Shown here: positions 18,244 through 49,595 of the stretch, piece after piece
How positions within the stretch are numbered: the stretch's first letter is position 1
How the letters are laid out: each line of letters starts with the position of its first letter
IMG/VR virus record: IMGVR_UViG_3300029448_006778
Coordinates: 1 to 55,700 of that record
Strand: one strand, 5' to 3'
Length of the DNA: 55,700 bases
Source: a virus
Taxonomy: Duplodnaviria; Caudoviricetes
Notes under the pieces: model-generated
Seen by the model: the letters and a program-made list of their open reading frames with translations, nothing else
Database searches by the model: none
Told to the model about the DNA's origin: nothing
Translations under genes and position numbers: made by a program

Positions 18244-18252
18244 AAAAGAATA

Positions 18253-26860: not shown

Positions 26861-26861
26861 T

Positions 26862-29380: not shown

Positions 29381-29381
29381 A

Positions 29382-30422
29382 TTAGTTACTCGACTCCAAT
29401 TCTGTTAATAATTCTTTTAGTCTATCTATCTGTTCCCATGATAAATCTTTTGCAACCGTCCAATTGTGTTTTAGTCTCTGTTGTATTTCTTTACTATAGT
29501 ACCAATTATGTAATTCGGTTAATGTATATTTTCCACTTATTCTTTTAATATTTTCACATACTTTTGAATATCTCATTTTGTCGTTTTGAATATCATCATA
29601 TGATTCATCAAATATATCAAAAAAAGTTTGAAATCCAAATGACTTTAATACTTTTAAAAAACCTGGTGAACCCAACACGATAAAAGGTTGAAATGCAAGA
29701 ATAGGTTTAAATATTTTTTCATCAAGAAAATCTGTAGTTGCCTGTGCATCTCCATTTGGTAAAGTTACAATATTGATATATGAATCAAAATGTAATGGAT
29801 AATTTATTAATGTAGGATCCATAATAGAGTTTCTTCCCCATTTTTCATCACCATCTAAAAAAATAGGATTATCATCTTTAGTATACGAATAATGTGTCTT
29901 ATTTAAAAGATTAGTTTTTTTAAGAAAACTATACAAATAATCTCTATGTTTCTTTTTTTCTCTATTTAATGATATAAAATATTTTGTTCTTCTAAACTTC
30001 TGTCCTGATTCAAATAGTTCAAGTGTATTACTTGTTGGATTTTTTTCTACCATATGTGTTAACAAATAATTAAAAGTATCGGTATTATTTTTAACACCAA
30101 ACTTTGGAATACTTTTTACCACATCTGGACTTAAAATATAAACTGGATTATTATGATTTAATTCAACTCTTGTACCACCCCAATTACTTGCAGAATCATC
30201 TATTAAAACAACAACTGGTATATGAATATCTTTGAGTACTTTTTTTATAAAATTACCATCGTGATAATCTTTAGTAAATTTCTCACCATTCATAACAAGT
30301 ATATCACCAGTTTCATATTCAAATTCTAAATCTACTACTTCTTTAAATTCTTTATCAATCCACTTTAATATAGTTTTACATAACTTTGGAAAGTTATTTC
30401 CATTATCTAATATATAAATCAT
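29382..30422 (-). CDS. GT10-like protein, paralog family A
   Basis: FISLNR...HR, YINIVT...FLDEKIFKP...PFIVLG...GFQTF...DESYD. Confidence 0.6.
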   Translation of the reverse strand: MIYILDNGNNFPKLCKTILKWIDKEFKEVVDLEFEYETGDILVMNGEKFTKDYHDGNFIKKVLKDIHIPVVVLIDDSASNWGGTRVELNHNNPVYILSPDVVKSIPKFGVKNNTDTFNYLLTHMVEKNPTSNTLELFESGQKFRRTKYFISLNREKKKHRDYLYSFLKKTNLLNKTHYSYTKDDNPIFLDGDEKWGRNSIMDPTLINYPLHFDSYINIVTLPNGDAQATTDFLDEKIFKPILAFQPFIVLGSPGFLKVLKSFGFQTFFDIFDESYDDIQNDKMRYSKVCENIKRISGKYTLTELHNWYYSKEIQQRLKHNWTVAKDLSWEQIDRLKELLTELESSN

Positions 30423-31333
30423 TTTTGTAATTCCTCGTAATATTCTATTGTTTCTGTTAATCCCATTTGTAATGTATATTCTCTTTCAAACCCATAGGAT
30501 TTCATTCTATCTGTGTTCATTTGTCTTCTCATATCACCATTTGGTTTTGTTAAATCATACTCTATCTCTGTTCCAAAGTATGTACCAATCACACTTGCAA
30601 TATCTGATATTCTAACTTCTTCACCACTACCAAGATTCACAACATCATTCACTCTATTCTGAACCATATGTATCATTCCACGAGCTACATCTTTTGAATA
30701 TATGAAATCTCGTATTGGTGTTCCATCACCCCAAACATTTAATACTTTATTATGATAACCCTTTTTAATCATTGATGCAATCACGGTAGATTCATCACCA
30801 AAATTATCAAAAGGGCCGTATATGTTTGCTGGTCTAACAATGGATATATTTTTATAATTATTTGTAATACTAACAGCTTCACAACTTAACTCTCCCATTC
30901 GTTTTATGTATGCAGGAATCTTATCGTTCTCACTTGGAACTCTATCCCACACATCATCTTCATTATAAAATTCACTTGGTGGATAAACCCCAACTGAACT
31001 TGTGTAAAGAAACCAATCAGGTTTCCATTTACCAACTGCACGAATCACATTCGTATCAAATTGTAACATTGGTAAGTAATCTTCTGGTCTTTCCTTTACT
31101 CTCAAAGGTGAACCCTTAATACCTGCCAAGTGATATATGTGATCATAATCTGCAATAATACTTGTGTTACTACTATGAGTCATATCTAATCCATAATACT
31201 TTGCGTTACTTGGTAAATCTTGTGGTATGTTGAAATCTTTATCAACTACACCAACCTTATCATAAATTTTAGAACACAACTCTACAAGTTGTCTTCCTAC
31301 CATTCCTCTCCCACCGATTATAAGTGCTTTCAT
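30419..31333 (-). CDS. NAD-dependent epimerase/dehydratase (GDP-fucose synthase-like SDR)
   Basis: IIGGRGMVG, YTSSVGVYP, RPANIYGPFDNF, VWGDGTPIRDFIY; paralog of 25086-26036. Confidence 0.85.
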   Translation of the reverse strand: MKALIIGGRGMVGRQLVELCSKIYDKVGVVDKDFNIPQDLPSNAKYYGLDMTHSSNTSIIADYDHIYHLAGIKGSPLRVKERPEDYLPMLQFDTNVIRAVGKWKPDWFLYTSSVGVYPPSEFYNEDDVWDRVPSENDKIPAYIKRMGELSCEAVSITNNYKNISIVRPANIYGPFDNFGDESTVIASMIKKGYHNKVLNVWGDGTPIRDFIYSKDVARGMIHMVQNRVNDVVNLGSGEEVRISDIASVIGTYFGTEIEYDLTKPNGDMRRQMNTDRMKSYGFEREYTLQMGLTETIEYYEELQK

Positions 31334-32046
31334 TTTATCTCCTTTAGTAGATATTCAAACCATTCTTTATTTCCTTTATCATTTGGATGGCCATCGTTTT
31401 TTGCATAATAGGAAATATCTTTGTTTTTCAACTCTAAATCTATATAATGTCCACCACAAAAATCTTCCCAAGATATATCAACAAGTGAATCATAAACATT
31501 AAGATATTTTGGAAAGTATTTTGTTGTTAACTCTTTTAACTTACCGATTGAATTAAACATTATATTATCTATATTATTATTTTCAAAAATATTCTGTAAA
31601 GAGATAATAAAGTGATTTGTTTTTTGAACATATTCCTCTTCAGAGAATAAATTTTTAAAGTAAAACTTCCAATGATTATATTCTCGTGTTGGCCATGATT
31701 CAGGTTTGTTATCAACTAATATACTCATAATATCTATTTTTTCATATTCTCTTTCTGGTCTGTTTAACAATGTTTGTGGATGTTTAAATTCAAATCTTGT
31801 TGATTCTGTCCAACCGATAAGAAAAAGTGTATCGTTTAATTTATCTGTATTCTCGTGTATCCAATCAATTGTTTTTCTAAAAATCATTTGATTAGAACCA
31901 CCACCCTCTGATAAATTAATATCTTCTGCACCAAAGTGTTTTGCGAATAATGTGGATACTCTATTCTCTTTATTAGTTGTACCATATCCCTCAGCCCAAC
32001 TACAACCACAAGTAACTATGTATTTGTACTTTAATATTTTGGCCAT
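31330..32046 (-). CDS. SGNH-like protein, paralog family B
   Basis: VTCGCSWAEG, NLSEGGGSN, IGWTE..RFE, DGHPN. Confidence 0.65.
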   Translation of the reverse strand: MAKILKYKYIVTCGCSWAEGYGTTNKENRVSTLFAKHFGAEDINLSEGGGSNQMIFRKTIDWIHENTDKLNDTLFLIGWTESTRFEFKHPQTLLNRPEREYEKIDIMSILVDNKPESWPTREYNHWKFYFKNLFSEEEYVQKTNHFIISLQNIFENNNIDNIMFNSIGKLKELTTKYFPKYLNVYDSLVDISWEDFCGGHYIDLELKNKDISYYAKNDGHPNDKGNKEWFEYLLKEIK

Positions 32047-32732
32047 ACCTTTTCCTTAATTTTTGATTTTTCTTCAATAATATCAAATAAATAATTACTC
32101 CACTTTTTATGATTTACTTTATTAGGATGGCCGTCAATCTTTGAAATATATTCTGTATGTTCAAATGGTGTAGTTGAGTGATTACCACCACAAAATTCTT
32201 CCCAACTCATATCTACAAATCTATCAAAGATATTTTGTGTGGTTTGTAATAATCCTGATGTAGTATCGAATAGTAAATAATTAACATCTTGTTTTTGTAA
32301 AAATGATTCAAATAATATAATATCTCTAATAAATTTTTCTCTCATCAGTTCTTCACTAAAAAAATGTTCTACATAATATTTCCAATGTTTTGCATAATCT
32401 ACTCCATGTTCTTTTACCTGATTATCAAATGATTGTTTATGTGTAAAACTTGTTGGATGTCCTTTATGAAATACTTGATTTATATCATCCCATATATCCC
32501 ATCTATAATATCCTGAAAATCCAATAACAAAATAATGATTTTTGATATTACGATGGTTCAAAATATAATCCATCGTAGTTCTCATAACCCAATCATTTGA
32601 TGCACCACCTTGACAAACATTTTTTTCTGAACATTCCATTAATTTAGATAAGTGATAACTGAATCGTTCATTCTTTTCAACTCCCATTCCCTGTAACCAA
32701 CTTGCTCCATTTACATACAAAGTATTATACAT
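32031..32732 (-). CDS. SGNH-like protein, paralog family B
   Basis: YVNGASW, GGASN, DGHPN. Shares VD(M/I)SWE(E/D)FCGG with the adjacent gene, suggesting a tandem duplication. Confidence 0.65.
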   Translation of the reverse strand: MYNTLYVNGASWLQGMGVEKNERFSYHLSKLMECSEKNVCQGGASNDWVMRTTMDYILNHRNIKNHYFVIGFSGYYRWDIWDDINQVFHKGHPTSFTHKQSFDNQVKEHGVDYAKHWKYYVEHFFSEELMREKFIRDIILFESFLQKQDVNYLLFDTTSGLLQTTQNIFDRFVDMSWEEFCGGNHSTTPFEHTEYISKIDGHPNKVNHKKWSNYLFDIIEEKSKIKEKVWPKY

Positions 32733-33375
32733 CTTTAATTACCCTATAAAGTTTTCTAAAAAACATATTATTTGATTTTCTACCAGGATGTGTTTTGTTA
32801 TTACCATAGTCTTCATATTCTAACTTGATATTATTATCTAAATGTTGTGAGTCTTCAATTGATAACAACACACTTGGTATATCTTTTAATAAAATTTTTG
32901 TTGACTCAATATAATTTTCACTTATACTTTTTAATTTTTCTTCACCAATTAATTTAATAAGTTTTTCCCATTTTGAACTCCATGGGCCACCTGGTTCATC
33001 TATAAAATCAAAACGATGGTGGTATGTAAAGTAAACAACTACACATTTTACATTTTTTATATTTGGTAATTCTCTCTTTAAAGTGTTATAAATGTATTCA
33101 TTTGAACACGAACCTTGAGATAAATTAATTAAATTACAATTCATTTTTTCTGATAATCTATGCGACCAAGTATCCTCTATATTTAGTCCTAATCCAAAAG
33201 TGAAACTATCTCCAACCACAACTAAGTTATCATCATACCATTTACCTGAACCATCATATCTATATCCACTTTCATTAAAATGATAATCTGTTTTACTTGA
33301 TGTGTCACCTGCATAATAGTTACTATGGTTACTAATTAGATGTTTTCTATTTCCTATATATTTTAAACTATCCAT
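32725..33375 (-). CDS. SGNH/GDSL-like protein, paralog family B
   Basis: FNESGYR, VVGDSFTFG, NLSQGSCSN, THPG. Confidence 0.65.
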   Translation of the reverse strand: MDSLKYIGNRKHLISNHSNYYAGDTSSKTDYHFNESGYRYDGSGKWYDDNLVVVGDSFTFGLGLNIEDTWSHRLSEKMNCNLINLSQGSCSNEYIYNTLKRELPNIKNVKCVVVYFTYHHRFDFIDEPGGPWSSKWEKLIKLIGEEKLKSISENYIESTKILLKDIPSVLLSIEDSQHLDNNIKLEYEDYGNNKTHPGRKSNNMFFRKLYRVIKDV

Positions 33376-34879
33376 TTACAATTCTTTTCAACTTAACAAA
33401 CATTTCACGATATACATTGTCATTAAAATGATTTATAAAATATTCATGGTTATGTATCATATCTTTTTTTGACTTATAAACTAATTTGTGTAATTCTGTT
33501 CTTGACATTGAACTTAATCTTTTAATATTCTCATATATTATATCAAGTCTATCTCTACCATCTTCAACTTCATCGTATGAATTATCAAAGATATTATCAA
33601 AGGTTTTGAATCCTAATTTTTTTAATGCTCTTATAGTTCCTGGTTCACTTATCGGTATAAATGGTGTACCGAGTGCAAGAGGTCTCCATATCTTTTCTGT
33701 AAATATTGGCCCACAAGATGGTTCATTATAGAAACCACCATCTTCTTTACCAAAATTTCCTGAATATGTTTCACAACATATATCAAAATAAACATTTAAA
33801 TATGATATTGGATTATAATACGGACCATATGTAGTATCATAATGTGTTAGTAATCTTGAACCTTTATCATTTTTTGCAGATTCACTTGAATGTGCAAGTG
33901 TCATAGGATCATCAATTCGTGAAGTTGTGTAATTTATATTATTTAAATCATCCAATTCAATTTCCATCATATCATGTGTTAATGGTAGTATTGGTTTTAA
34001 TGTTTTCATCCACTCATCAAATTCTTTTTTTGGAATAGAACCACACAATTCATATAAATTAAATGCTCTCGTTGAATGTGTTGCATTACCCATTGATGGA
34101 AAGTTTATTTTGTTGTCTTCTTGTATTTCTTGAAAAGAACAATATCCCTTTTTATATAATCCATCTCTTACCAAATTATACATTAGTAAAACTCTTGGTG
34201 TTCTTGGCATAAAATTATTGAACATAAAGTGTTTCGGTCTTAAAAAATATTCTTGATTTAAAATTAAATTACTCCAAATATTATCTTTTGATAATCCTTT
34301 AAAGGAATCATATGCATTTGAACAATGTGTAACAAATGGTATTGCATTAATTTTTTTACTATACTTTCCCCACAATTCATCAACAAGTACATCACCATCA
34401 CTATAAATTATACTTTCATGTGGTATTTGATTTTTGTCTAAGTATTCAATCGTATTTTTTATATTTGACTCTTCCATAATTCTACCCTCAGGAGAAGTAT
34501 CAAACCATATTTTTGCCCTACCACTTTTTATATTCTCAATATGATTACTTGTTAATCCCAATTCTAAAACAAACTTTATCTGATTGTATGGTCCGTGATT
34601 TGATGAATCTGGTTGATATTCAACATATATAAGATATGGTTCATTTTTGTCTAAGAAATCCTCAGTATGATGTATTTTGAATTTATCCTTACCACCATCA
34701 AAAAAATAAAACAAATGTGATAATCCACTACCATATTTATTTTCCTCATCTGAAACATATAATCTCTGTGTTCCCCAAAGTTTCCAATGAGATGTTTTGC
34801 TTCCTGCTTTCCTTGGTTCTTCTGAACCAACTTCATTTCTATCAATTTCACTATATTTAAATGCAATAATATCTAACAT
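33368..34879 (-). CDS. GT10-like protein, paralog family A
   Basis: YFDICCET...IFTEKIWRP...PFIP...LKKLGFKTF...DNSYD. Start moved to 34879 (AGGAG SD). Confidence 0.6.
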   Translation of the reverse strand: MLDIIAFKYSEIDRNEVGSEEPRKAGSKTSHWKLWGTQRLYVSDEENKYGSGLSHLFYFFDGGKDKFKIHHTEDFLDKNEPYLIYVEYQPDSSNHGPYNQIKFVLELGLTSNHIENIKSGRAKIWFDTSPEGRIMEESNIKNTIEYLDKNQIPHESIIYSDGDVLVDELWGKYSKKINAIPFVTHCSNAYDSFKGLSKDNIWSNLILNQEYFLRPKHFMFNNFMPRTPRVLLMYNLVRDGLYKKGYCSFQEIQEDNKINFPSMGNATHSTRAFNLYELCGSIPKKEFDEWMKTLKPILPLTHDMMEIELDDLNNINYTTSRIDDPMTLAHSSESAKNDKGSRLLTHYDTTYGPYYNPISYLNVYFDICCETYSGNFGKEDGGFYNEPSCGPIFTEKIWRPLALGTPFIPISEPGTIRALKKLGFKTFDNIFDNSYDEVEDGRDRLDIIYENIKRLSSMSRTELHKLVYKSKKDMIHNHEYFINHFNDNVYREMFVKLKRIVNG

Positions 34880-34887
34880 ACTAACTC

Positions 34888-35583
34888 CTAAAACATTACC
34901 CAATTACCAGTACCATGATGTGGATAATCACTTTTATATTTATAATAAAATACATCTTTAGGTACATCTTGTTTTTTACCCCAAGTTTTATCAACTGGTG
35001 TATTTGTAGAAAGGTTATTATCCTCAATTACAAACTCTAAAGGTAAATCATTGTTACGAGCATATTTATATACCTCGTGAAATATCCCACTTTCAAATGT
35101 CATATCACCAATAAAACACCATACTTTAGGTAATCTATTTTCACGATGTTTTTTATTATCTCTTTTTATAGATAAGGCAGTTCCCAATGCGATTGGTAAA
35201 GTTCCACCTACGATTGATGATGAATAAAATTTCCATTGTTTATCTATTGGATGTGTATCCTTATTTTCAGAATTAAAGTGATTAACACTCATACTCTTAC
35301 CATCCTTAATTTGTCTCATTACATTATCTCTATCTATACCATGTAATAATGCATGATAATGGTTTCTCCAACTACAAAAAACCCAATCCATTTCACTTAC
35401 ATATTGAAAAACCTCTATCAATTGTTCTTCATTATTTGATGCAAGATGGACTGGTGCAGTAATTTCACCATCATTATAAGAATCTGCGACTTCTGTTTCG
35501 AAGTCAATTAAATCTTGTTTAGTTAAAGTTATATCTCTAATAACTCCACCATCTAAAATGTGTTTTGGTATCTGTACACTCAT
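34888..35583 (-). CDS. TPP-dependent dehydrogenase E1-alpha-like subunit (short)
   Basis: APVHL, WRNHYHAL, SSIVGG, TPP motif GDMTFESG...EDNN, YPHHGTG. Confidence 0.85.
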   Translation of the reverse strand: MSVQIPKHILDGGVIRDITLTKQDLIDFETEVADSYNDGEITAPVHLASNNEEQLIEVFQYVSEMDWVFCSWRNHYHALLHGIDRDNVMRQIKDGKSMSVNHFNSENKDTHPIDKQWKFYSSSIVGGTLPIALGTALSIKRDNKKHRENRLPKVWCFIGDMTFESGIFHEVYKYARNNDLPLEFVIEDNNLSTNTPVDKTWGKKQDVPKDVFYYKYKSDYPHHGTGNWVMF

Positions 35584-36086
35584 TTGTCTCTCCCATATAC
35601 TATTGGATTATCTATTGGCCATTGTATTTTTAACATCGGATCATTCCACTTAACACTAATCTGTTCACTTGTATCAATATACTCATTTGGATAAGATTGT
35701 GTATAGTGAAATACACACTCATCAGTTAAACATAAGTGTCCATTAAGAAAACCTGGTGGAACTAATACACTCATATGATTTCTATCTGATATCAAATAAC
35801 TTTCCCAATTTAAATAATTTACACTATCTTCTCTATAATCAACGACAACTAAATATATTTCACCATACACACAAGTAATGTGTTTCCAAGTTTCGTTGTC
35901 TCCGTGTAAACCTCTTAGGACATTCTTTCTTGAACGAGTGAATTTAGATATTTTTTCTTTTGGTGTTTCATATGAGTTTTCCCAATATGTCCACATCTCA
36001 CCACGATAATCCATATGTGGTTTTGGTGCAAACATTGTTACTTCTGGTAAAACATCTGATTCTTTTTTATCGTATGGGAATGTCAT
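35580..36086 (-). CDS. rmlC: dTDP-4-dehydrorhamnose 3,5-epimerase family (cupin)
   Basis: DYRG, SRKNVLRGLHG, LVVVDYR, VPPGFLNGH, VKWNDP...WP. Confidence 0.85.
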   Translation of the reverse strand: MTFPYDKKESDVLPEVTMFAPKPHMDYRGEMWTYWENSYETPKEKISKFTRSRKNVLRGLHGDNETWKHITCVYGEIYLVVVDYREDSVNYLNWESYLISDRNHMSVLVPPGFLNGHLCLTDECVFHYTQSYPNEYIDTSEQISVKWNDPMLKIQWPIDNPIVYGRDK

Positions 36087-37045
36087 AATGATGTTCCATA
36101 ACTTAATGGAAATGCATTTCTATAATGTGAACTTTCTTGTGGAACTATAATTTGGTATGCCTGAATTAATTCTTGTACACCATCTTCAATACTATACTTT
36201 GGTTTCCAACCAGTAGATTCTATCTTTTTATTACTAACGACATAATCTCTTTTATCTGGATCTACAAAATAATCTGAATAAGTAATTGAAGTGTTAGGAA
36301 TATATTTTTGTATTCTTTCTACTAATTGTTTTTTATTGATGTTTGTGTCTGATAAACCAACATTGAATATTTGTCCTTTATGTTTATCATAGTTTTCAAT
36401 CATAAACTCAAATACTGATGCAACATCTTGTATGTGAATAAAGTTTCTAACAAAAGTTTTTTCAAATATTGTTATATACTTATCTGTCAATAACTTATAT
36501 ACAAATTCATTTACCAACAAATCCAATCTCATACGACTTGATACACCAAATACGGTTGCCAATCTAAATACAATACCATTACTAAATGATTTGATATAAT
36601 TTTCCGCATCACACTTGGTGTGTCCATAATGTGATACTGGTGTTAGTCTATCCTCTTCTGATACTTCCCCATCATTCCTACTACCATAACCACTATTAGT
36701 ATTTGGAAATAATAATTGTTGTTCTTTAGTAATATTATCTACTATGTCTTTAATGTGATGGTAATTTATTGAAGTTGCAAGTTGTTTATCATTTTCACAT
36801 GCAGGAAACCCTACAAGTGCTGCAAGTGGAATTATAACATCATGTTTTGTAACCTGTTCTATTAGTAATTTATAATCACGAACATCACCATAAATAAATT
36901 TGAAATTTGAATTTCCACATAAATCTATTAATGATGTTTGATTATACATCAAATTATCTATAATGGTTACACTATGATTTTGTAACAATTTTCTGGTGAT
37001 AACTGAACCTAAGTATCCAGCTCCACCTGTAATTAATATTCGCAT
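36083..37045 (-). CDS. NAD-dependent epimerase/dehydratase (extended SDR)
   Basis: ILITGGAGYLG, LAALVG, YGHTK (YxxxK), RLATVFG, DKRDY. Confidence 0.9.
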   Translation of the reverse strand: MRILITGGAGYLGSVITRKLLQNHSVTIIDNLMYNQTSLIDLCGNSNFKFIYGDVRDYKLLIEQVTKHDVIIPLAALVGFPACENDKQLATSINYHHIKDIVDNITKEQQLLFPNTNSGYGSRNDGEVSEEDRLTPVSHYGHTKCDAENYIKSFSNGIVFRLATVFGVSSRMRLDLLVNEFVYKLLTDKYITIFEKTFVRNFIHIQDVASVFEFMIENYDKHKGQIFNVGLSDTNINKKQLVERIQKYIPNTSITYSDYFVDPDKRDYVVSNKKIESTGWKPKYSIEDGVQELIQAYQIIVPQESSHYRNAFPLSYGTSL

Positions 37046-37071
37046 AAAAAAGCCTCCAAGTAATTAGAGGC
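37046..37071 (-). terminator. Intrinsic terminator hairpin that also contains the SD of the downstream gene
   Basis: Minus strand reads GCCTCTAA-TTAC-TTGGAGGC-TTTTTT-ATG: an 8-bp stem (one G-U) plus 6 U, with GGAGG in the 3' arm. Confidence 0.75.
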
Positions 37072-37170
37072 ATCTATATAGTAAAACTATTTAAATGCCA
37101 CCCTTATTTTATAGTCTACGATAGTGGGTTAGGACTTTCTCCGAAGAGTGTTAGCACTACCTGACTTATA
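37046..37170 (-). ncRNA. Candidate structured cis-regulatory leader RNA (riboswitch/attenuator-like)
   Basis: Longest non-coding gap in the window. Hand pairing: AGTC/GACT and GTAGTG/CACTAT stems enclose a CTC-TTCG-GAG hairpin, followed by a 14-position antiterminator-like hairpin overlapping the terminator. Confidence 0.55.
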
Positions 37171-37179
37171 TATAAATAG
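37171..37179 (-). promoter_or_regulatory. Putative late-promoter motif (CTATTTATA) immediately upstream of the structured leader
   Basis: Directly after the sulfotransferase stop; same core as the other intergenic motifs. Confidence 0.5.
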
Positions 37180-37965
37180 TTAGTAATCTGAAAAATCCTT
37201 AGAATATTTAAATGTTTGAAAATCTTCTGTGAATAAATCATATACAATTTTTTTTGATTTTTCAGTATAAAAATCTTTCCAAGATGGTAAATATTTTTCT
37301 GTTTCATTTTTGTTCATATCTAAACCAAGATTTTCAGTATCACCCCACATTGTACAAGAATCGTAACCACTTATCTTTCTTTCACTTTCAATTTCTAATA
37401 TTTTGTTCATAGTTGGATGTGTTTGTATCTCACTAATATCCACTCGTTCAAAATCTTCTATTGGAAAATTACTTAACTCGTTTACATATGAATGAGCATG
37501 TCCATCAACAATATTACCCTTTTTGAATTCTTCACAAAAATGTTGAAAACTTTTTTGCCATTCTTCTTTAGTCATATCCTCTAATGTGGTTTTTAATTCT
37601 ATCGGTTTATAATCTTTAAAATCATCTATTACTTCATACTGATAAACTTTTTTATTATTTTCTGTATGTTGTACACTTATTTTATATCCAAATGCCCATA
37701 CTGAAAGAAACCTTTCATATGGATTTCTTGTAATTATAACTTTATGTAAGTTTTTATATACTTCCTTATCCATTTGTAGATAAAACCAAGATGATCTTCT
37801 AAATGAAGTATGTGGTATTTGTATCCATTGTTCAGGATAACACCACATTAAACAAGTTGTTAGATATGTTGAGGCTACCTTTTGATTAACTATGATTATT
37901 GCACTTAATTCTGATATATTTGAATTTGAAAGAGGGCCACCTGTTGATACAATATTTATTGGCAT
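37180..37965 (-). CDS. Sulfotransferase family 2-like protein
   Basis: 5'-PSB-like QKVASTYL, 3'-PB-like TRNPYERFLS, C-terminal EDFQTFKY. Confidence 0.7.
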   Translation of the reverse strand: MPINIVSTGGPLSNSNISELSAIIIVNQKVASTYLTTCLMWCYPEQWIQIPHTSFRRSSWFYLQMDKEVYKNLHKVIITRNPYERFLSVWAFGYKISVQHTENNKKVYQYEVIDDFKDYKPIELKTTLEDMTKEEWQKSFQHFCEEFKKGNIVDGHAHSYVNELSNFPIEDFERVDISEIQTHPTMNKILEIESERKISGYDSCTMWGDTENLGLDMNKNETEKYLPSWKDFYTEKSKKIVYDLFTEDFQTFKYSKDFSDY

Positions 37966-37966
37966 A

Positions 37967-39421
37967 TTAGTAAACCTTTACTTTATATTTTTTACTGAAT
38001 TCGACACCATCTTGATGTGAATTAACTATTGGTTGTCCTTTTATATTTAGACTTGTATTCAATACCATTGGACAACCTGTCTTCTTATAGAACTCCTTGA
38101 TTAATTTATAGTAACCTGGATTATCTAATTTACTTACGGTTTGTACTCTTGATGTATTATCAACATGACATATTGCAGGATACCTTTCTGGATACTTACA
38201 AGGTGCAGTAAATTGCATAAATTGACTTTTCTTTACTGGCATATCAAATATTTCATGGGCATGTTCTTCAAGGACGGATGGGGCGAATGGACGAAACTTC
38301 TGTCGATGTTTTATTTCATTCACCCTATCCTTAATCCCATCTCCTCTTGGGTCTGCCAACAAACTTCTATTTCCTAAAGCTCGTGGGCCGAACTCTGCTC
38401 TACCATTAGCAACTCCTACTATCTTACCCTCTAATAATTCTTTTAAAACTTTATCAATTGGATACTCACCTTTAATATCATAACCAAGAAAACAATTATC
38501 AAAATTTAGGTGTTCACCTAATACATATGCAGCACATCCCAATGAACTTCCACCATCTCCTGGATTTGGTATAATCCACAATGATGGATATAACTCTTCT
38601 GCAACCATAGAATTTGCAACACAATTTAATGCAACTCCACCACCATAACACATATTATCTGTTTCAGGAACTAACTCCTTTGTTTTGAGAAAAATTTCGT
38701 ATATCTCATCTTCTATAAGTGACTGAACATTTGCTGCTATATTAAACTTCCAATCTTCACTATCATCGTCTGGATAATGTATTGAGTCCCAACTCAAACA
38801 CCCTCGATGTAAATTTGCACCCATTAATTCTTTTAACTCTGATTTGATATCACGATTAGGTTTACCATATGCAGCCATACCCATTAGTATGTATTCATCT
38901 TCTTGTGGTTTTAATCCAAGTCGTTGTGTCATTGCACTATAGAATAGTCCAAGTGATTTAGGATATTTTTTTGAATATCGTTTTTCAAAGTTACTACCAT
39001 TTGCATACCAAATAGTTAATGTTTCAAATTCACCAATTGCATCTATACATACAATTGCACTCTCATCATATGGTGATGTATAATAGGATGCAGCAGCATG
39101 AGATTGGTGATGACTTACATATTCATCTATCTTGATACCAAATTGTTCTAAATGTGCAGATGGAAGATTATTTTTTGCAAATGCTTCTGAATATTGTCCT
39201 GCATATATTTGTCGTAACTTCTTACACCATGGTCTTTCAAAATACACAACCTTGTCCCAACCACCATATTGTTTTACATCTTCTATCATTTCCTTATTAA
39301 GAAGACTATCATTCTTGATACCACTATATCGTTCTGCATGTCCTGCATACAAAATATCTTTACCATCAAGTAGAGTTATACATGCATCGTGATTTAATGC
39401 GTTAATTCCTAATATTCTCAT
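37967..39421 (-). CDS. O-carbamoyltransferase (NodU/CmcH family)
   Basis: ILGINALNHDA, ERYS, HHQSHAA, DAIGE, EYILMGMAAYG, GGVALNC, EFGPRALGNRSLLADP, FRPFAP, LNTSLN. Confidence 0.95.
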   Translation of the reverse strand: MRILGINALNHDACITLLDGKDILYAGHAERYSGIKNDSLLNKEMIEDVKQYGGWDKVVYFERPWCKKLRQIYAGQYSEAFAKNNLPSAHLEQFGIKIDEYVSHHQSHAAASYYTSPYDESAIVCIDAIGEFETLTIWYANGSNFEKRYSKKYPKSLGLFYSAMTQRLGLKPQEDEYILMGMAAYGKPNRDIKSELKELMGANLHRGCLSWDSIHYPDDDSEDWKFNIAANVQSLIEDEIYEIFLKTKELVPETDNMCYGGGVALNCVANSMVAEELYPSLWIIPNPGDGGSSLGCAAYVLGEHLNFDNCFLGYDIKGEYPIDKVLKELLEGKIVGVANGRAEFGPRALGNRSLLADPRGDGIKDRVNEIKHRQKFRPFAPSVLEEHAHEIFDMPVKKSQFMQFTAPCKYPERYPAICHVDNTSRVQTVSKLDNPGYYKLIKEFYKKTGCPMVLNTSLNIKGQPIVNSHQDGVEFSKKYKVKVY

Positions 39422-39522
39422 TTGTAGATAAACGGGTCTCGTTTTTTAATTTCTTTAAGCCTTTTCTTAAAAAGATACCATCTTTTAACTTTATTATAGT
39501 ACTTTTTTATTATTTTAATCAT
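39418..39522 (-). CDS. 34-aa basic peptide coupled to the carbamoyltransferase (not in the ORF track)
   Basis: Hand translation MIKIIKKYYNKVKRWYLFKKRLKEIKKRDPFIYK; ATGA overlaps at both ends fill the gap exactly. Confidence 0.75.
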   Translation of the reverse strand: MIKIIKKYYNKVKRWYLFKKRLKEIKKRDPFIYK

Positions 39523-40976
39523 ACAACTTCGTCCTTTTTTATCTTAGAACATTCTTCCCAAAATTGTTTTATTTCAGGGAAGACTCCTAAAATATTTGTT
39601 TTTCTCCTCTTATCATGTTCTGTAAAAAATTGATAAAAGTCATATCTATTTCTCTTTAAACTCTTCTCGTCAATATCTCCTTGACACCAATCATAAATTC
39701 TCTGTAGTTTTTCCATTTCCATATGTGAAAATACATCATCACCTTTTTCAGTAAAACCTTTTTCTTGAATAGAGTGCATTAAATTAACTTGAGATTGAAT
39801 ATTTTCTTGAAATACTTTTGGTAAAATTCTAACACTTTGATGTGATGGATGTCTTAAATAAGATATGTCTGCAACAACCGAATTCGATGTGTATCTATCT
39901 ACCGAATTATACTTCTCTTTTAATAAATAGAGTTGTTCAATAAATAAGTCAAAATTAAATACACTTAATGCATTATAAGTAACCATAAAAGTTAATGATG
40001 GTTTTGTTAATTTAGTTAAAGTCTTTTCACAATTTTTCCAAAATGCTCTATAGTTTAAACCATGTCTAATATACTCAGATTTTGTTCCCCAACCATCTAT
40101 ACTTGTAAATATTTGAAAATCTTTTACCAAATTTCTCTCAGTAATAATTTTTACCTTTTCTATAAATTTATCCATTAATTCATCAGGTGCACCCATATTA
40201 GTATTTACCGATAACACAAGGTTTTTATTTGGTTTATCTGTTTTAATAATATAATCTAATACTTTAAAAGTATCTTTTGATAATAGTGGTTCACCACCTG
40301 TGATTCTAAATGTATGTAAATCTTGGTACAAGTCTGGCCACCATTTCCAAAATGCTTCTACATATGGATTTTCTTCTTTTTGTGGGATAGGCATTAATTG
40401 TGAATGTTTTAGTCCACCCAATGAATTAAATTTTGTTGTTGTTGGATAACCACCCTTGTCTTTTATTTCATTCATCCATTGTGTTGAAATGTGTGGTGCA
40501 CAATAACTACATTTAAAATTACAAGCATTAGAAAAAACTACTTCTACATAGGTTGGATTTACATTCTCTCTCCAATCAATCAAATAATTTTTATTATCTT
40601 TTTTATGTTGAATTTTGTCCCAAAATGATTTTGCCCAAGGTTCATTACTCTTTAATATTCTATCACTAAAAACATCACTATTATCTTCTACATTCCAACA
40701 ATAATCACACTCACTTGGTCTAGCATCTGTTAACATTTCTTTACGAGCATGTTTCTTATACCAAGTATTGTGTAGTGCAGATGGATCCTTTTTAATTTCA
40801 TCCAATGGTATCTTATGTGTTCTTGGATGATGACAAGAGTGTGTATGTCCATTTTGTAAATGTATTGTAACTTGCATCCACTTTGCAACACACATACCAC
40901 AACCAACTGAATCTAATCTTCCCTTGGTTTTATTTAACTCATGTACATCTTTTTCTGCTTGTGTTTTCATTCCCAT
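39519..40976 (-). CDS. Radical SAM protein with an N-terminal twitch-like Fe-S domain
   Basis: CVAKW...HSCHHP...ECDYCW, CNFKCSYC, ITGGEPL, NTN. Confidence 0.88.
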   Translation of the reverse strand: MGMKTQAEKDVHELNKTKGRLDSVGCGMCVAKWMQVTIHLQNGHTHSCHHPRTHKIPLDEIKKDPSALHNTWYKKHARKEMLTDARPSECDYCWNVEDNSDVFSDRILKSNEPWAKSFWDKIQHKKDNKNYLIDWRENVNPTYVEVVFSNACNFKCSYCAPHISTQWMNEIKDKGGYPTTTKFNSLGGLKHSQLMPIPQKEENPYVEAFWKWWPDLYQDLHTFRITGGEPLLSKDTFKVLDYIIKTDKPNKNLVLSVNTNMGAPDELMDKFIEKVKIITERNLVKDFQIFTSIDGWGTKSEYIRHGLNYRAFWKNCEKTLTKLTKPSLTFMVTYNALSVFNFDLFIEQLYLLKEKYNSVDRYTSNSVVADISYLRHPSHQSVRILPKVFQENIQSQVNLMHSIQEKGFTEKGDDVFSHMEMEKLQRIYDWCQGDIDEKSLKRNRYDFYQFFTEHDKRRKTNILGVFPEIKQFWEECSKIKKDEVV

Positions 40977-42472
40977 TCTGGTATATTCTCATGTCTACAT
41001 ATAAAATTTATAAAATCATGTCGTCCAAGTTTGTCTACTGAATCAACTTCGTATTTTAAATCAGATACACCATCTTGTTTAGTGTCCCAAAGTCCATATT
41101 GTACTTCACTAAAAAATCGTTTCTCATTTCTACTTGTATCTTCTTGGAATACAAAACGATTATTTACAATTCCATTGATTGGATGTTTTAATGATTTAAA
41201 TCTACCATTTCTACGATGTGGTACAATTGTATGTTCTATATCATCAAGTTCTGTAAAATCCCAATCACATCCATGATTTACTCCATGATTTTCATTTCCA
41301 CTTAAATCATAAACAAAATTCTCATCTATTTTTTTGAAATCATAATATAATTTACAATCTTCAACTTCATTCAAATCAGTATAATCACTTTCGTATATTT
41401 TTTTTATTTCTTCTTTTGTTAAAACTCTATTCCACATTCCGAGTTGAGATACTTCTCCGTAAAAATAATTATTTGGTGAAACATCTGTTGGATTTTTTAC
41501 ACCAAGATAATATGGTAATCCACCATACCTCTTTGGTTTTCCACTCATCTTTAATGGTGACTCTACTCCATGTCCAAATCTTGCATCGGACTCTTCCCCA
41601 TTCATATAGAATCGTATTTCTTCTGTTTCTGAATCCATTGTGACTAATAAATGTGTCCAAGTATCAGGGTTTCTTTTCAACCACATATAGTTATGGTTAT
41701 TTTTATAATCATACATAGAAAAAGAATATGCACGAGAGTTATCATATGCAAATCCCATTTGATAACCAGGTCGTCCTAAAATATAATTGTGTACATATTT
41801 TCTATTTTTTAAGTCACCAATTAAATACATTGGTATATCAAAGTTATCAAAAGACTTTACTAAAATACTCCAAGTAAAACTATCTGTTGTTAGTTCTCTT
41901 AATGTAGGTGTTGGTGGAATTTCTATATAAGAGTCTATACCATCAAACGAAACTGAACCTACCTCTTTATTAGACTTCGATAATTTTTGTCTGTTAACGA
42001 ATCCCTCTTGTTCACATCTCCATAACAAATCATCATCTTCCATACCCCAATTCCAATAATCATTTGAATAACCATTGATTTGTTCATATTGTTCTTTTGT
42101 AAAAAGAACTGCACCACCAAAATATTGAATAGATGGTAACATATAATCAAACTGACTTATATGTACTGCAATATGTTTTGGATGTTCTTTAGGATAACTA
42201 TAATCACAAGTTTCATCTTCAGGTAACATATCTATATCGTGAAAACAAAAATAATCATATCCTTGTTTTACTGCTTCTGCAAATGCAATATTTTTTGCAG
42301 TTCCACGATTAAACCTAAGAATAGTATCAGGTTCAATTTGATTTGCAACAAATATTTTAAATTCTATATCAGGATGATACTTTTCCATAAAGTTTTCCAT
42401 ATGTGGAATAAATTCATCCAAATGTTCTTTTCTACGATAATGTGGAACACATATTGCTAATTTCTTACTCAT
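40967..42472 (-). CDS. GT7 beta-1,4-galactosyltransferase-like enzyme with inserted LamG/ConA domain
   Basis: VPHYRR, FNRG..KN, FHDIDMLP, YFGG, NGYSNDYWNWGMEDDDL, then SFDGIDSY...WTHL...YMNG, then RNGRFKSLKH...DGVSDL. Confidence 0.8.
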   Translation of the reverse strand: MSKKLAICVPHYRRKEHLDEFIPHMENFMEKYHPDIEFKIFVANQIEPDTILRFNRGTAKNIAFAEAVKQGYDYFCFHDIDMLPEDETCDYSYPKEHPKHIAVHISQFDYMLPSIQYFGGAVLFTKEQYEQINGYSNDYWNWGMEDDDLLWRCEQEGFVNRQKLSKSNKEVGSVSFDGIDSYIEIPPTPTLRELTTDSFTWSILVKSFDNFDIPMYLIGDLKNRKYVHNYILGRPGYQMGFAYDNSRAYSFSMYDYKNNHNYMWLKRNPDTWTHLLVTMDSETEEIRFYMNGEESDARFGHGVESPLKMSGKPKRYGGLPYYLGVKNPTDVSPNNYFYGEVSQLGMWNRVLTKEEIKKIYESDYTDLNEVEDCKLYYDFKKIDENFVYDLSGNENHGVNHGCDWDFTELDDIEHTIVPHRRNGRFKSLKHPINGIVNNRFVFQEDTSRNEKRFFSEVQYGLWDTKQDGVSDLKYEVDSVDKLGRHDFINFICRHENIPEWE

Positions 42473-43919
42473 TCGTAACACTCACTACTTTTATATTATT
42501 ATTATCTTCTTTATTGACTACTTTATAATCTAACGATGATAATCCATCTTTTGAATAATCTTCCAAGTCTGTTCTAACCAAATTAAAAAATCTTATTTGA
42601 TTTTCTCTTGATCTCCAATCTTTATATTTTGTTGATTGCCATCCATTACTTTCATGGTCAAGACAAATAAACTTACCATCTCGTCTTGTCGGTAAAGATT
42701 TCTTTTCACCTATTTGTAATTCTGATTTTCTTCTTATTGCACCATAGATTTCACCATTATGGTTATACTTTGAAGAGTCTTTAACTTTATTCTCTTGTAT
42801 GTTTTCAAAGTCATAACTTAATATTAAATCATCAACAAAAGAATATTCATTTTTTGGTTTAGTAACATCGTGTGGTACACCATCATTAAATAATTGTCTT
42901 ACTGCTCTTCTATCAGTAAATCTTTTCCACATACTAACTTGTGCAATTCTACCACTAAACCAATTATTATCTTTTGGTAATTTCGGACTTGCACATCCTA
43001 TGAATAATGAATCACTTTTTTTATTAATACTAAGATTACCAAAGTAATTTGATGGTGAGTTGTCTACTTCATTTCCATTTACATATAGTGATAATGTTTT
43101 TGATACTGAATCTACACTAAAAACCACATGACTCCATTGTTCTGACATCTTGTGACTAACTACCATTGCCTGTTCTGAATTTGTATTCCACACACCACCT
43201 TTATATTGTTGTGCACTTGTCCAACAAATACCAGAATGATAACCAGGTTTACACATTAAGTGAAACTCATCATAATCCTTTTGTCTATCTATTTCTAATT
43301 TATCGGATGGTTCTACCCACATTTCCATTGTGTAGGATCGTTCAAATGTTTTATTCATTATTGGTGATGAATCAACTTCTATATAATCTCCTGGTGAGAA
43401 ATACATTAAGTTAATAAATGGATTACTGAATTGTTTTGAAGAGACAAGTTCTTCATTCATAGGAACACCACTTTGTCTGCACCTATATAATAAGTCATCG
43501 TCTTCAAATCCCCAACCCCAATATTCATTTGAGAATCCATTAATTACTTCAAAGTGTTGAACTGGAAACATCGTTACCCCACCAAAGTATTCAGGATATG
43601 GTAATTTATACTTATTGTTCGACAACTTTGTTGCAAGATGAGTCGGTCTATCCACCCATGAATAGTCACATGATTCATCTTCTGGTAACATATCAACATC
43701 GTGAAATACTACATAATCACATTTTAATTGTTTAGATATATCAAATCCAATATTACATAACCAACCTCGATTAAAAGGTAAGTCATTTGCCTGTTCGACT
43801 ATTATGATTTCATAATCAACAATGTTCTGTGATTGTAATCTGTCTTCTATTGATGGTATAAACCGAGAAAGATGTTCTTCTCTGTCCCTATACGGAACTA
43901 CTATACCAAGTTTTGACAT
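42465..43919 (-). CDS. GT7 beta-1,4-galactosyltransferase-like enzyme with inserted LamG/ConA domain
   Basis: VPYRDREEHL, FNRGWLCNIGF, FHDVDMLP, YFGGV, NGFSNEYWGWGFEDDDL, LamG-type WSHVVF...LYVNG, then RDGKFICLDH...DGLSSL. Confidence 0.85.
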   Translation of the reverse strand: MSKLGIVVPYRDREEHLSRFIPSIEDRLQSQNIVDYEIIIVEQANDLPFNRGWLCNIGFDISKQLKCDYVVFHDVDMLPEDESCDYSWVDRPTHLATKLSNNKYKLPYPEYFGGVTMFPVQHFEVINGFSNEYWGWGFEDDDLLYRCRQSGVPMNEELVSSKQFSNPFINLMYFSPGDYIEVDSSPIMNKTFERSYTMEMWVEPSDKLEIDRQKDYDEFHLMCKPGYHSGICWTSAQQYKGGVWNTNSEQAMVVSHKMSEQWSHVVFSVDSVSKTLSLYVNGNEVDNSPSNYFGNLSINKKSDSLFIGCASPKLPKDNNWFSGRIAQVSMWKRFTDRRAVRQLFNDGVPHDVTKPKNEYSFVDDLILSYDFENIQENKVKDSSKYNHNGEIYGAIRRKSELQIGEKKSLPTRRDGKFICLDHESNGWQSTKYKDWRSRENQIRFFNLVRTDLEDYSKDGLSSLDYKVVNKEDNNNIKVVSVTNE

Positions 43920-44236
43920 TATTTTTTACCGAATATATTCTTTAATACTCCACCACTTTGTTCTTCTTGTGCTTGTGGTTGTGGTACTGGTTGTTGTACA
44001 TATTGAACTGGTTGTTGTGCAGGTTGTTGTGGTGTATTTTGTGGTGATTGATTCAATCCCATCTGATACATTTCCCATAACTTCCAATCAATTGCTTCTA
44101 ACTTCTCTTCGATACTTGTTAATGCACGAAGTAGTAATGCAAAGTTATCATTTGTACTCATTCCACTATCAAGAGCATCTCTTGCATCTTTGATATCTGA
44201 TTTTGTATCTGTTGTACTTGTTTTTTTAGTTGCCAT
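43919..44236 (-). CDS. Small protein with a coiled coil and Q/P-rich linker
   Basis: AGGAG SD; LTSIEEKLEAIDWKLWE followed by QQPAQQPVQYVQQPVPQPQ. Confidence 0.7.
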   Translation of the reverse strand: MATKKTSTTDTKSDIKDARDALDSGMSTNDNFALLLRALTSIEEKLEAIDWKLWEMYQMGLNQSPQNTPQQPAQQPVQYVQQPVPQPQAQEEQSGGVLKNIFGKK

Positions 44237-44250
44237 TTTTTAACTCCTTG

Positions 44251-49550: not shown

Positions 49551-49582
49551 AATAACCTCATTTTTCCTACTATTTCCTTATA

Positions 49583-49591: not shown

Positions 49592-49595
49592 AACC

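Follow-up and report, generated by a model that had tools for sequence, protein, structure and literature searches.

Within the sugar-gene cluster of a marine myophage contig, whose genes lie on one strand, a stretch of 134 bases (37046-37179, minus strand) forms the longest non-coding gap of the contig, and the question is what such a spacer does at this position. To our knowledge, the large glycan-modification clusters of marine phages are poorly understood, and we know of nothing on how their expression is timed or dosed. A preliminary description had presented the spacer as the sensing leader of the nucleotide-sugar operon. The reading that we tentatively prefer, with a probability of about 0.4, is that it is a promoter-proximal cis-acting attenuator located between two units of the glycan gene cluster. 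Below, "the window" refers to the whole stretch of 55.7 kb that was analyzed. No tRNA or tmRNA was detected in it, and a blastn search with 2.2 kb of its sequence returned no match among cultured phages.

Gene context and the promoter-like motif

The first gene downstream of the spacer (36083-37045, minus strand) encodes an NAD-dependent epimerase/dehydratase of 320 amino acids (Pfam PF01370, E = 2.4e-28), with a start at MRILITGGAG that matches 64 relatives. The ATG at 37074 was rejected as a start; it is in frame in four of the five haplotypes of the spacer, with nine additional codons, but out of frame in the window. The last gene upstream (37180-37965, minus strand) is a sulfotransferase-like ORF of 261 amino acids (PF03567, E = 1.4e-7). 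The epimerase gene opens a presumed transcription unit (18253-37045, minus strand) of 19 ORFs and 18.8 kb, in which every gap is shorter than 20 nt, and the next gap with a promoter motif is found at 18199-18252. A copy of the promoter-like motif with two mismatches is present inside this unit, at 30407-30420, and may be an internal promoter, in which case less of the downstream unit would be gated. The earlier figure of about 19 kb of sugar genes behind the leader is therefore accurate as to length and continuity, with the reservation of this possible internal promoter.

Genes for glycosyltransferases, radical-SAM enzymes, a carbamoyltransferase, and a sulfotransferase are found on the same strand upstream of the spacer, where a unit of 12.4 kb (49550 down to 37180, minus strand) is headed by a second copy of the motif. 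Since sugar genes flank the spacer on both sides, it separates two transcription units of one cluster and is not the head of that cluster, so that its description as the start of "the" nucleotide-sugar operon had to be given up. The resulting three-unit architecture is identical in the related contigs G002 and G005.

The promoter-like motif, TATTTATATATAAG (37165-37178, minus strand), starts 2 nt past the stop codon of the upstream ORF. There are two exact copies of this 14-mer in the window, the other being at 49577-49590 (minus strand), and both are located in intergenic gaps on the coding strand. Its TATTTAT core is present in 19 of the 27 internal gaps of three related contigs (the window, G002, and G005), at a density of 6.5 per kb in gaps compared to 0.36 per kb elsewhere, which corresponds to an 18-fold enrichment. 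The recurrence of the motif in gaps is thus not due to chance, and TATTTAT is most likely the promoter of the phage. The motif does not match the sigma-70 consensus, and a scan for this consensus yielded 88 sites when 106.5 were expected, so that a promoter of the sigma-70 type is without support.

In ordinary gaps, the motif lies only about 20 to 30 nt upstream of the ATG. In the spacer, it is followed by 95 nt, a hairpin with a U6 tract, and then the ATG. The G002 gap at 69385-69500, which contains a canonical terminator, has the terminator first and the promoter after it, and the order promoter-then-terminator of the spacer is therefore exceptional. This is the layout of an attenuator, i.e., a promoter upstream, a terminator before an ORF, and one leader, with transcription predicted to start at the motif. 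The same position, exactly between two units that each have a promoter motif, would also suit a passive junction without any switch. There, a partial terminator would close the 12-kb unit that lies upstream and keep the two units at a constant ratio, transcription would be primed anew by the promoter, and the 5' stem and hairpin 2 (see below) would do no more than stabilize or process the message. However, such a junction does not explain why the promoter stands upstream of the terminator, in the opposite order to that of the G002 gap, and we consider it a rather unlikely alternative.

Hairpins preceding the epimerase gene

All stems, motifs, and coordinates named in the preliminary description are present on the minus strand. 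Hairpin 2 (37069-37099, minus strand) has an AU-rich stem of 13 to 15 pairs (13 of 14 positions are paired as originally read) and is a candidate antiterminator or anti-sequestor. Its folding energy is -12.0 to -13.7 kcal/mol, with a z-score of -3.82 (2 of 200 shuffled sequences fold equally well). The hairpin that follows (37052-37071, minus strand) reads GCCTCTAA-TTAC-TTGGAGGC in the DNA and GCCUCUAA-UUAC-UUGGAGGC in the RNA; it consists of 8 pairs, 4 of them G-C, and a loop of 4 bases, and folds at -9.9 to -11.1 kcal/mol (z = -3.33, 0 of 200 shuffles). Next comes a U6 tract (37046-37051, minus strand), which ends 0 nt before the epimerase ATG (37045-37043). An intrinsic (Rho-independent) terminator was predicted from a compact G+C-rich stem, a loop of 3 to 8 nt, and at least five U residues directly after the stem, all of which this hairpin shows, and no other compact GC-rich hairpin with a U-tract was found in a coding-strand gap of the 55.7-kb window. 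The fold of the whole 146 nt, by comparison with shuffled sequences, is no better than chance (z = -1.02, 32/200).

The SD of the epimerase gene, GGAGG (37057-37053), is part of the 3' arm of the terminator hairpin, and the six U residues that follow serve as terminator tail and as the spacing between SD and AUG alike; this double use ties the element to the epimerase gene. SD-like motifs precede 29 of 56 ORFs, so masking the SD should matter. We also note, as a point that counts against an attenuator, that translation alone could be the reason why the hairpin and its U6 tract are maintained.

Hairpin 2 and the terminator hairpin compete for the bases GCC. The strict overlap is 3 nt, and with a GG/CU extension added by RNAfold, hairpin 2 takes GCCUCU, which corresponds to 6 of the 8 bases of the terminator 5' arm. 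Full hairpin 2 together with a short stem has an energy of -14.8 kcal/mol, and trimmed hairpin 2 with the full terminator one of -14.6 kcal/mol; the alternative folds are within 0.2 kcal/mol and hence isoenergetic. The GG/CU extension is weak, and trimmed hairpin 2 is able to coexist with the full terminator. The equilibrium probability of the terminator closing pair varied from 0.02 to 0.36, depending on the 5' end assumed. The antiterminator/terminator competition initially proposed is thus borne out by the shared GCC and by the equal energies, whereas the coexistence of the two stems means that one does not have to exclude the other.

If the spacer is an attenuator, the phage promoter TATTTATATATAAG would start a leader RNA of about 110 to 120 nt that could adopt two folds. 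In one of them, GCC(UCU) would be taken by hairpin 2 in its full or extended form, the polymerase would read on, and the GGAGG of the SD would be mostly free. In the other, hairpin 2 would lose its base, the 8-pair hairpin with its U6 tract would form, transcription would stop, and the SD of the epimerase gene would be hidden from ribosomes. Transcripts arriving from the upstream unit would encounter the same terminator hairpin. Isoenergetic folds also make a fixed partial read-through the default prediction, as would be expected of a passive junction.

A promoter motif with a canonical terminator 95 nt further on is, in addition, a complete transcription unit, and the spacer could be a free-standing small-RNA gene, the product of which, an RNA of about 115 nt, would act in trans on host or phage messages. 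Its 5' block, invariant and mostly unpaired, would serve as the seed or bind a protein, the two hairpins would be no more than scaffolds, and the epimerase gene would be expressed by leak-through. The only ORF inside the spacer is a 13-codon GTG frame, and the unit looks inserted because 59 of the 64 epimerase relatives have no leader at all. But a free-standing gene does not account for a terminator that also supplies, with its 3' arm and U-tract, the SD and spacing of the next gene. Furthermore, ten-mer complementarity to phage messages was found 10 times in the window compared to 16.7 ± 7.5 times for shuffled leaders, and there was no target site common to three phage contigs, in a comparison that covered the messages of the phage. 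Contigs from four RNA runs contain parts of both flanking genes at an identity of at least 99%, but none of them covers 37046-37179; as assembled contigs, they do not show where a transcript begins or stops, and some of them may stem from carried-over DNA. Taken together, a trans-acting small RNA appears rather unlikely, to the same degree as the passive junction, and both are serious rivals of the attenuator.

Conservation and the 5' domain

The element was found once per contig, in 14 records that represent five haplotypes. The order of promoter, leader, hairpin 2, and SD-containing terminator, as first described, is real and was kept in 14 of 14 records. Pairwise comparisons of the leader revealed 1 to 7 differences at 132 to 133 sites and none at the 54 sites of a 5' block: alignment columns 12 to 65, which extend from the promoter motif through the first five bases of the 3' strand of stem P2, are identical in all five haplotypes. 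Between the window and each relative, 30 to 35 of the 85 to 86 four-fold silent sites of the epimerase gene differ, and silent sites next door differ at 30 to 41% between the main lineages. The leader thus changes about 10 times more slowly than the silent sites of the epimerase gene, and the conservation of the 60-nt segment 37181-37122 is at the 99.9th percentile of 20 kb.

Further downstream, no haplotype has lost hairpin 2, although it contains a 3-nt insertion, a 1-nt indel, and two A-to-G substitutions that gave G-U pairs; the indels preserve or lengthen the stem. In the terminator hairpin, the haplotypes differ in the loop and in the pair that closes it and nowhere else. The U6 tract is invariant in the five haplotypes. 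A passive junction leaves 54 consecutive invariant bases unexplained next to silent sites that differ so widely. An unstructured 5' part free of variation, followed by 3' hairpins that tolerate indels but hold their shape, is typical of trans-acting small RNAs, and the spacer fits this pattern.

The distribution of the element is narrow. A covariance model detected one copy per contig in six of six contigs and none elsewhere in 65 sources. Searches of viral_contigs for diverged homologues, based on the exact core, anchors, variable-gap patterns, and the terminator part, returned the same five contigs only, apart from one additional variable-gap match (L110) that was dismissed as a chance hit in a GC-rich coding region. 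A sulfotransferase profile retrieved the same five contigs from viral_contigs and seven more from metagenome_contigs, all with known haplotypes. An exact 22-mer matched one contig of genome_contigs, which is filed in a Gammaproteobacteria MAG and has the same phage gene order. The sulfotransferase-like ORF evolves fast, with 37 to 47% identity to its syntenic copies, and this ORF and the leader were invariably found together. In the searches made, the element therefore did not occur beyond a single narrow clade and a single gene context.

The 5' domain (37113-37166, minus strand) contains stems P1 (AGUC/GACU; AGTC at 37166-37163 and GACT at 37116-37113) and P2 (GGUAGUG/CACUAYY), which enclose a 26-nt loop. 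P2 is formed by GTAGTG (37160-37155) and CACTAT (37126-37121) and reaches seven pairs as GGTAGTG/CACTATC. Inside the loop there is a CUC-UUCG-GAG mini-hairpin (CTCTTCGGAG, 37148-37139), flanked by two copies of CTAAC (37154-37150 and 37132-37128). The domain is followed by the A-rich linker UAUAAAAUAA and GGGU (37100-37112, minus strand), with a single U/C difference among haplotypes. This GGGU (GGGT, 37103-37100) abuts the base of hairpin 2; it could lengthen that hairpin or pair with the ACCC of the loop region (37129-37126).

The preliminary description had assigned a ligand-sensing role to this domain, and this role found no support. The fold of the 5' domain is no better than that of shuffled sequences (z = -0.41 or +1.13, depending on the cut chosen), and a comparison of homologous leaders, which had been proposed as a check, gave strong conservation over the 14 records but covariation in none of 33 pairs, a count with little power as there are only five haplotypes. 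No homologue was found outside the narrow clade. The four one-sided stem changes observed all keep pairing through G-U. Between haplotypes, P2 changes only from UC to CU, opposite GG, and both pairs are kept by wobble. As G-U pairing is valid only in the RNA of this strand, the stem changes are compatible with pairing only on the transcribed strand. The lack of a sensor fold and of covariation also agrees with a passive junction.

A metabolite-binding riboswitch would be a special case of the attenuator in which an H-type pseudoknot of ACCC and GGGU forms and a ligand, for which a nucleotide sugar, NAD, or PAPS are candidates, biases hairpin 2 against the terminator. Riboswitch classes are usually widespread, however, and the spacer is limited to one clade and one gene context; nor is there a structured domain backed by covariation in the five haplotypes. 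The topology, in which a stem with its loop is followed by an A-rich tail and by a 3' segment complementary to that loop, may recall small pseudoknot aptamers such as preQ1-I, GGGU is placed directly at the base of hairpin 2, and the invariant loop bases are compatible with a binding pocket. In the sections of PMC2864571 consulted here, the candidate riboswitch motifs wcaG and manA are reported from cyanophages and marine metagenomes.

The Rfam 15 covariance models, those of the preQ1 class included, gave no match at the gathering threshold over the whole window. At E values up to 10, only four matches were obtained for 36900-37400 (PK1-TEV, Yfr10, sau-19, and Histone3), at chance level with 11.5 to 21.1 bits as compared with thresholds of 34 to 80; wcaG, manA, epsC, nadA, and the SAM classes were absent even from this list for the leader region. 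Inspection by eye had initially matched the leader to no known riboswitch class, which agrees with these data, and its novelty is thus not removed. Considering these results, we regard a metabolite-binding riboswitch as quite unlikely. Likenesses to boxA (CACUCUU), ops (GGTAG), nadA-like loops, and the hammerhead core (GAAAGUC) were set aside, as they extend over only 5 to 7 bases. A screen of IMG/VR for structured RNAs has been published (Fremin et al. 2023, PMC10690425); the main text of that article makes no mention of an epimerase or sulfotransferase, and its candidate lists are in the supplements.

The invariance of the primary sequence, the single copy per contig, and the short direct repeats of the spacer (AAGTC twice and CTAAC twice) would be in accordance with a site that acts as DNA, such as an operator, a replication or recombination site, or the target of a homing enzyme, in which the RNA folds would be incidental. 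A DNA site is nevertheless very unlikely, given that the stem changes are G-U compatible on the transcribed strand only and that the element opens with a promoter motif and closes with a gene's SD and ATG. Still less probable is an attenuator in which the position of a ribosome on a leader peptide picks the fold. The 13-codon frame from GTG at 37157 to TAG at 37116 is open in all five haplotypes, and the variable bases alter only its last codon, from S to L. However, an open frame of this length is unremarkable, its start is a GTG with an AGG just 2 nt upstream, it contains no run of any single codon, and its 12 codons show no synonymous change, compared to the 30 to 41% silent-site difference next door.

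For the attenuator itself, the invariant, weakly structured 5' domain would be the part that is recognized, more probably by a phage or host macromolecule than by a metabolite. One may think of an RNA-binding protein or of a factor that modifies the polymerase, in a manner akin to lambda N or Q. Points against the attenuator are the chance-level folds of the 5' domain and of the whole leader, the lack of covariation, the absence of any leader from 59 of the 64 epimerase relatives, and the finding that no contig of the RNA libraries crosses the spacer. It is conceivable, though unlikely, that the 5' domain represents a novel recognition RNA on which passage through the terminator depends, either as a new small pseudoknot aptamer for a metabolite or cofactor of the sugar pathway or as a new put/nut-like element that renders the polymerase resistant to terminators. 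If so, an 18.8-kb glycan operon would be gated by a device of an undescribed class.

Relation to known systems and significance

In the late control of lambdoid phages, the promoter pR' gives rise to a short 6S leader RNA that ends at the terminator tR', which is passed with the help of the antiterminator Q; N/nut and the put sites of HK022 are further antitermination systems of such phages. The spacer resembles this arrangement in that a phage promoter is followed about 100 to 200 nt on by an intrinsic terminator with a very long one-strand operon behind it, and in that the sequence-critical part is at or just after the promoter. In contrast to it, there is no sequence likeness, the terminator of the spacer also contains the SD of the first gene, and the contigs, which are fragments, yielded no gene of the Q, N, or NusG-like type. 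The NusG-like domain PF02357 was detected in none of five contigs, estimated to be 6 to 41% complete, with positive controls.

Riboswitch and attenuator expression platforms make use of competing antiterminator and terminator stems. As in these, the hairpins of the spacer share bases, a U-tract follows the terminator, and the SD would be sequestered in the off state; in the spacer, however, the overlap is short (3 to 6 nt), there is no evident anti-antiterminator, and the aptamer is only putative. The PeSL cassettes of T4-type phages consist of a promoter and a stem-loop and are present in multiple copies. They share with the spacer a conserved promoter with a stem-loop between divergent genes in a plastic myophage region, but the leader was single-copy in every contig searched, and only its 14-nt promoter motif recurs.

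The EAR element is thought to control terminator read-through by antitermination and acts on distal terminators. Both EAR and the spacer are conserved RNAs located between two genes of a polysaccharide cluster, whereas in the spacer the terminator follows the leader immediately, and Rfam gave no match. The motif, also named epsC and belonging to the eps operons of Bacillales, is described in PMC2864571. According to the corresponding passages of Weinberg et al. 2010 (PMC2864571), wcaG RNAs (RF01761) typically stand upstream of exopolysaccharide genes or of genes induced by high light and regulate these, and manA RNAs are located in the 5' UTRs of genes for mannose/fructose metabolism and nucleotide synthesis as well as of other genes. 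Like these candidate cis-regulatory RNAs of marine phages and metagenomes (as characterized in the same passages), the spacer belongs to a marine phage; unlike them, it is restricted to one clade and has no covariation, and neither model matched it at an E value of 10.

The element is a compact 134-nt candidate for a control point between the two halves of the cluster, with clear mutational targets. If it switches, a phage-specific regulatory RNA would join a short list and would provide a handle on the timing of phage sugar synthesis. If it does not, the data still document the promoter motif and the operon structure of an uncultured myophage clade.

A non-coding spacer inside a glycan gene cluster

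The window, a 55.7-kb IMG/VR virus record, has a G+C content of about 30%, carries all its long open reading frames (ORFs) on the minus strand, and encodes a portal protein and a large terminase, the latter sharing 55% and 54% identity with those of Flavobacterium myophage 'immuto' and Microcystis phage Mel-JY01, respectively. The DNA and RNA runs holding this stretch are labeled marine or seawater, and the phage clade is one of uncultured marine myophages. Only six gaps of at least 20 nt were present, the longest being the spacer at 37046-37179 (134 nt), which lies between a sulfotransferase-like ORF upstream (37180-37965, minus strand) and an NAD-dependent epimerase/dehydratase ORF downstream (36083-37045, minus strand). 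Both flanks carry sugar/glycan genes. Upstream are three GT7/Laminin_G_3 paralogues, a GT2-like ORF, two radical-SAM proteins, a methyltransferase, a carbamoyltransferase, and the sulfotransferase, and the downstream genes include the epimerase, an RmlC-like epimerase, TPP-enzyme pieces, more SDR epimerases, a UDP-glucose-dehydrogenase-like ORF, and a PhyH dioxygenase.

The three paralogues are arranged in tandem (40967-45717, minus strand), measure about 485-505 amino acids, share 22-34% identity among themselves, and each consist of a GT7 galactosyltransferase-like N terminus fused to a Laminin_G_3/concanavalin-like domain. Elsewhere on the minus strand, residues 118-399 of a 1720-amino-acid ORF (10269-15431) match phage tRNA nucleotidyltransferase families, and the ORFs at 50249-51745 and 52774-53823 share a C-terminal match to a single 'virion structural protein' PHROG, the former also containing a weak Hint/intein-like stretch (residues 324-358) under the Pfam cut-off. 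The 97-nt gap 39422-39518, retained in the related contigs G002 and G005, is filled by a 34-codon ORF, MIKIIKKYYNKVKRWYLFKKRLKEIKKRDPFIYK (39418-39522, minus strand), whose ATG and stop codon overlap, respectively, the stop codon of a radical-SAM ORF and the start ATG of the carbamoyltransferase ORF; its short product could serve the radical-SAM enzyme as a partner or as a substrate. At a relative's locus, L035, a peptide with the C-terminal sequence ...KRDPFIYNH sits ahead of the epimerase.

Among 64 viral-contig loci encoding an epimerase relative, the spacer was found in five (L005, L006, L007, L008, and L055). Inspection of upstream sequences together with a covariance model showed it to be absent from the other 59, in which the epimerase adjoins or overlaps the preceding gene. 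A sulfotransferase profile search retrieved the same five viral contigs; it also matched seven metagenome contigs, each carrying the spacer. An exact 22-mer gave one further match, L109 (NZZP01000015.1, 14.6 kb), which has the same gene order and the L007 leader haplotype; its filing in a Gammaproteobacteria MAG is a weak host hint or a binning artefact. In total, there were five haplotypes in 14 records, some of which may represent one phage sampled twice. Over 10 kb on either side, gene order was kept, with protein identities of 37-98%. The covariance model detected a single copy per contig and no other match in five whole records, which rules out a multi-copy cassette.

The whole window gave no gathering-level match to Rfam 15. 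At E values up to 10, the segment 36900-37400 produced four chance-level matches, and the wcaG, manA, epsC, nadA, and SAM classes were absent; the preliminary description had by eye matched the leader to no known riboswitch class. Neither tRNA nor tmRNA was found, and blastn gave no match in cultured phages. Structured RNAs in IMG/VR have been surveyed (PMC10690425). The spacer is a genuine single-copy regulatory element under strong constraint, and its RNA family is not in Rfam.

Probable promoter motif and putative transcription units

The spacer starts with TATTTATATATAAG, located 2 nt past the upstream stop codon. The only other exact copy of this 14-mer in the window (49577-49590) is likewise in a coding-strand gap. 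The earlier view of this motif as promoter-like was borne out by its recurrence: TATTTAT was present in 19 of the 27 internal gaps of the window, G002, and G005, at a coding-strand density of 6.5 per kb versus 0.36 per kb elsewhere (Fisher p 6e-17), these gaps having been called by a simple ORF filter and not all being independent, since the contigs are syntenic. For TTATATTTAT, there were 10 gap matches versus 1 elsewhere in the three contigs. Window gaps with TTATATTTAT/TATTTAT include 5254-5323, 18199-18252, and 49551-49595, and the pattern recurs in G002 and G005 gaps. Judged by this distribution, TTATATTTAT/TATTTAT is probably the promoter of the phage clade. It does not match the sigma-70 consensus and differs from the T4 late promoter, TATAAATA.

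The upstream unit extends over 12.4 kb from the motif at 49577-49590 down to the sulfotransferase. The downstream unit comprises 19 ORFs over 18.8 kb from the ATG at 37045, without a gap of at least 20 nt, and ends at the next motif-bearing gap (18199-18252); a motif copy with two mismatches (30407-30420) may be an internal promoter. This three-unit layout is common to the window, G002, and G005. Since the upstream unit has its own motif, the spacer is a junction inside the cluster, and the leader proposed to control the nucleotide-sugar operon does not stand at the cluster's head.

The distance from motif to ATG in ordinary gaps is about 20-30 nt. Canonical terminators with an A-tract, GC-stem, and T-tract immediately precede the promoter motif in G002 69385-69500 and G005 1-414, indicating that intrinsic terminators are in use in this clade, with the terminator placed, as is usual, before the promoter. 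In the spacer this order is reversed: the motif is followed by 95 nt, a hairpin with U6, and the ATG. Gaps of 200-360 nt (22653-22858, 24537-24746, and 31169-31427 in G005; 837-1051 and 66169-66528 in G002) may contain small ORFs or other non-coding RNAs.

Sequence constraint and RNA folds

At four-fold silent sites of the codon-aligned epimerase, the window differs from other lineages at 30-35 of 85-86 sites, and the other lineages differ among themselves at 5/105 to 36/98. Leaders differ pairwise at 1-7 of 132-133 sites, and alignment columns 12-65, extending from the promoter motif over most of stem P2, are identical in every pair (0/54). In a five-sequence 20-kb alignment with 46% invariant columns overall, invariance reaches 95% over the 60-nt stretch 37181-37122, which places it at the 99.9th percentile, equaled only by the very conserved ORF 30419-31333; the upstream sulfotransferase shows a protein identity of only 37-47%. 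In the 3' half of the leader, L007 and L055 differ by 1 position and the window differs from the others by 4-7; these differences follow the flanking phylogeny, making a recent sweep unlikely. A passive junction between units would leave both the 54 invariant bases and the reversed promoter-terminator order unexplained, and we consider it unlikely.

This conservation was not accompanied by covariation, as two-sided changes affected 0/33 pairs across the five haplotypes and 0/41 in the RNAalifold consensus. Four pairs were altered on one side, all kept via G-U, namely two in P2, where UC became CU opposite GG, and two in hairpin 2 (37069-37099), where an A facing U became G; the sole broken pair closes the terminator loop. 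In L008, a 3-nt insertion and a 1-nt indel lengthen hairpin 2 (segment energy from -14.8 to -17.0 kcal/mol). With five haplotypes, the G-U tolerance is no more than suggestive of a role as RNA from the spacer's coding strand; a site acting at the DNA level appears highly improbable. The faintest prospect is a leader peptide from the 13-codon GTG frame 37157-37116, which is open in all haplotypes and lacks a usable Shine-Dalgarno (SD) sequence, a codon run, or silent variation.

The stems, motifs, and coordinates of the preliminary description were all confirmed against the sequence, its GTAGTG/CACTAT stem being longer than described, with seven pairs (GGUAGUG/CACUAUC). Hairpin 2 (z -3.82; 2/200 shuffles equally good) and the terminator hairpin (37052-37071; z -3.33; 0/200) are predicted to fold better than shuffles. 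For the 5' domain (37113-37166), z was -0.41 with one cut and +1.13 with another, and the whole 146 nt gave z -1.02 (32/200). The 5' domain had been put forward as a sensor; nothing so far supports ligand sensing, and a ligand riboswitch, a special case of an attenuator, is decidedly doubtful.

The terminator scan detected an 8-pair hairpin followed by U6 (37046-37051), and a separate scan of the full window showed it to be the only gap-located compact G+C-rich hairpin with a U-tract on the coding strand. As proposed earlier, the GGAGG SD forms its 3' arm, and U6 is the SD-to-ATG spacer; the host evidently uses SD-like motifs, since these precede 29/56 ORFs. Contigs from RNA libraries reach both flanking genes, and none spans the spacer. 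A free-standing small RNA gene is about as probable as a passive junction.

A candidate attenuator

Hairpin 2 and the terminator have GCC in common. In RNAfold predictions, additional G-C and G-U pairs beyond a U/U mismatch extend hairpin 2, leaving up to 6/8 bases of the terminator 5' arm contested. Full hairpin 2 with a 5-pair remnant reached -14.8 kcal/mol, and trimmed hairpin 2 with the full terminator reached -14.6 kcal/mol. Over three assumed 5' ends and three 3' ends, closing-pair probabilities from the partition function were 0.02-0.36 for the terminator and 0.10-0.96 for hairpin 2. The overlap and near-equal energies fit the competition proposed between antiterminator and terminator; the predicted balance would suit a switch and equally a fixed partial terminator.

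The anatomy of the spacer fits a cis-acting promoter-proximal attenuator, our leading though tentative reading (probability about 0.4). Transcripts started at the motif, and those arriving from the upstream unit, would read on or stop at the spacer. In the read-through state, extended hairpin 2 would capture GCC(UCU); in the stop state, the hairpin and U6 would end transcription and also mask the epimerase SD. A search of five contigs, each a fragment, revealed no NusG-like gene. The invariant, weakly folded 5' domain would be the part being read, and the sequence-level constraint, promoter-adjacent position, and phage setting favor a macromolecular effector, which might be an RNA-binding or polymerase-modifying factor in the manner of lambda Q or N, over a metabolite.
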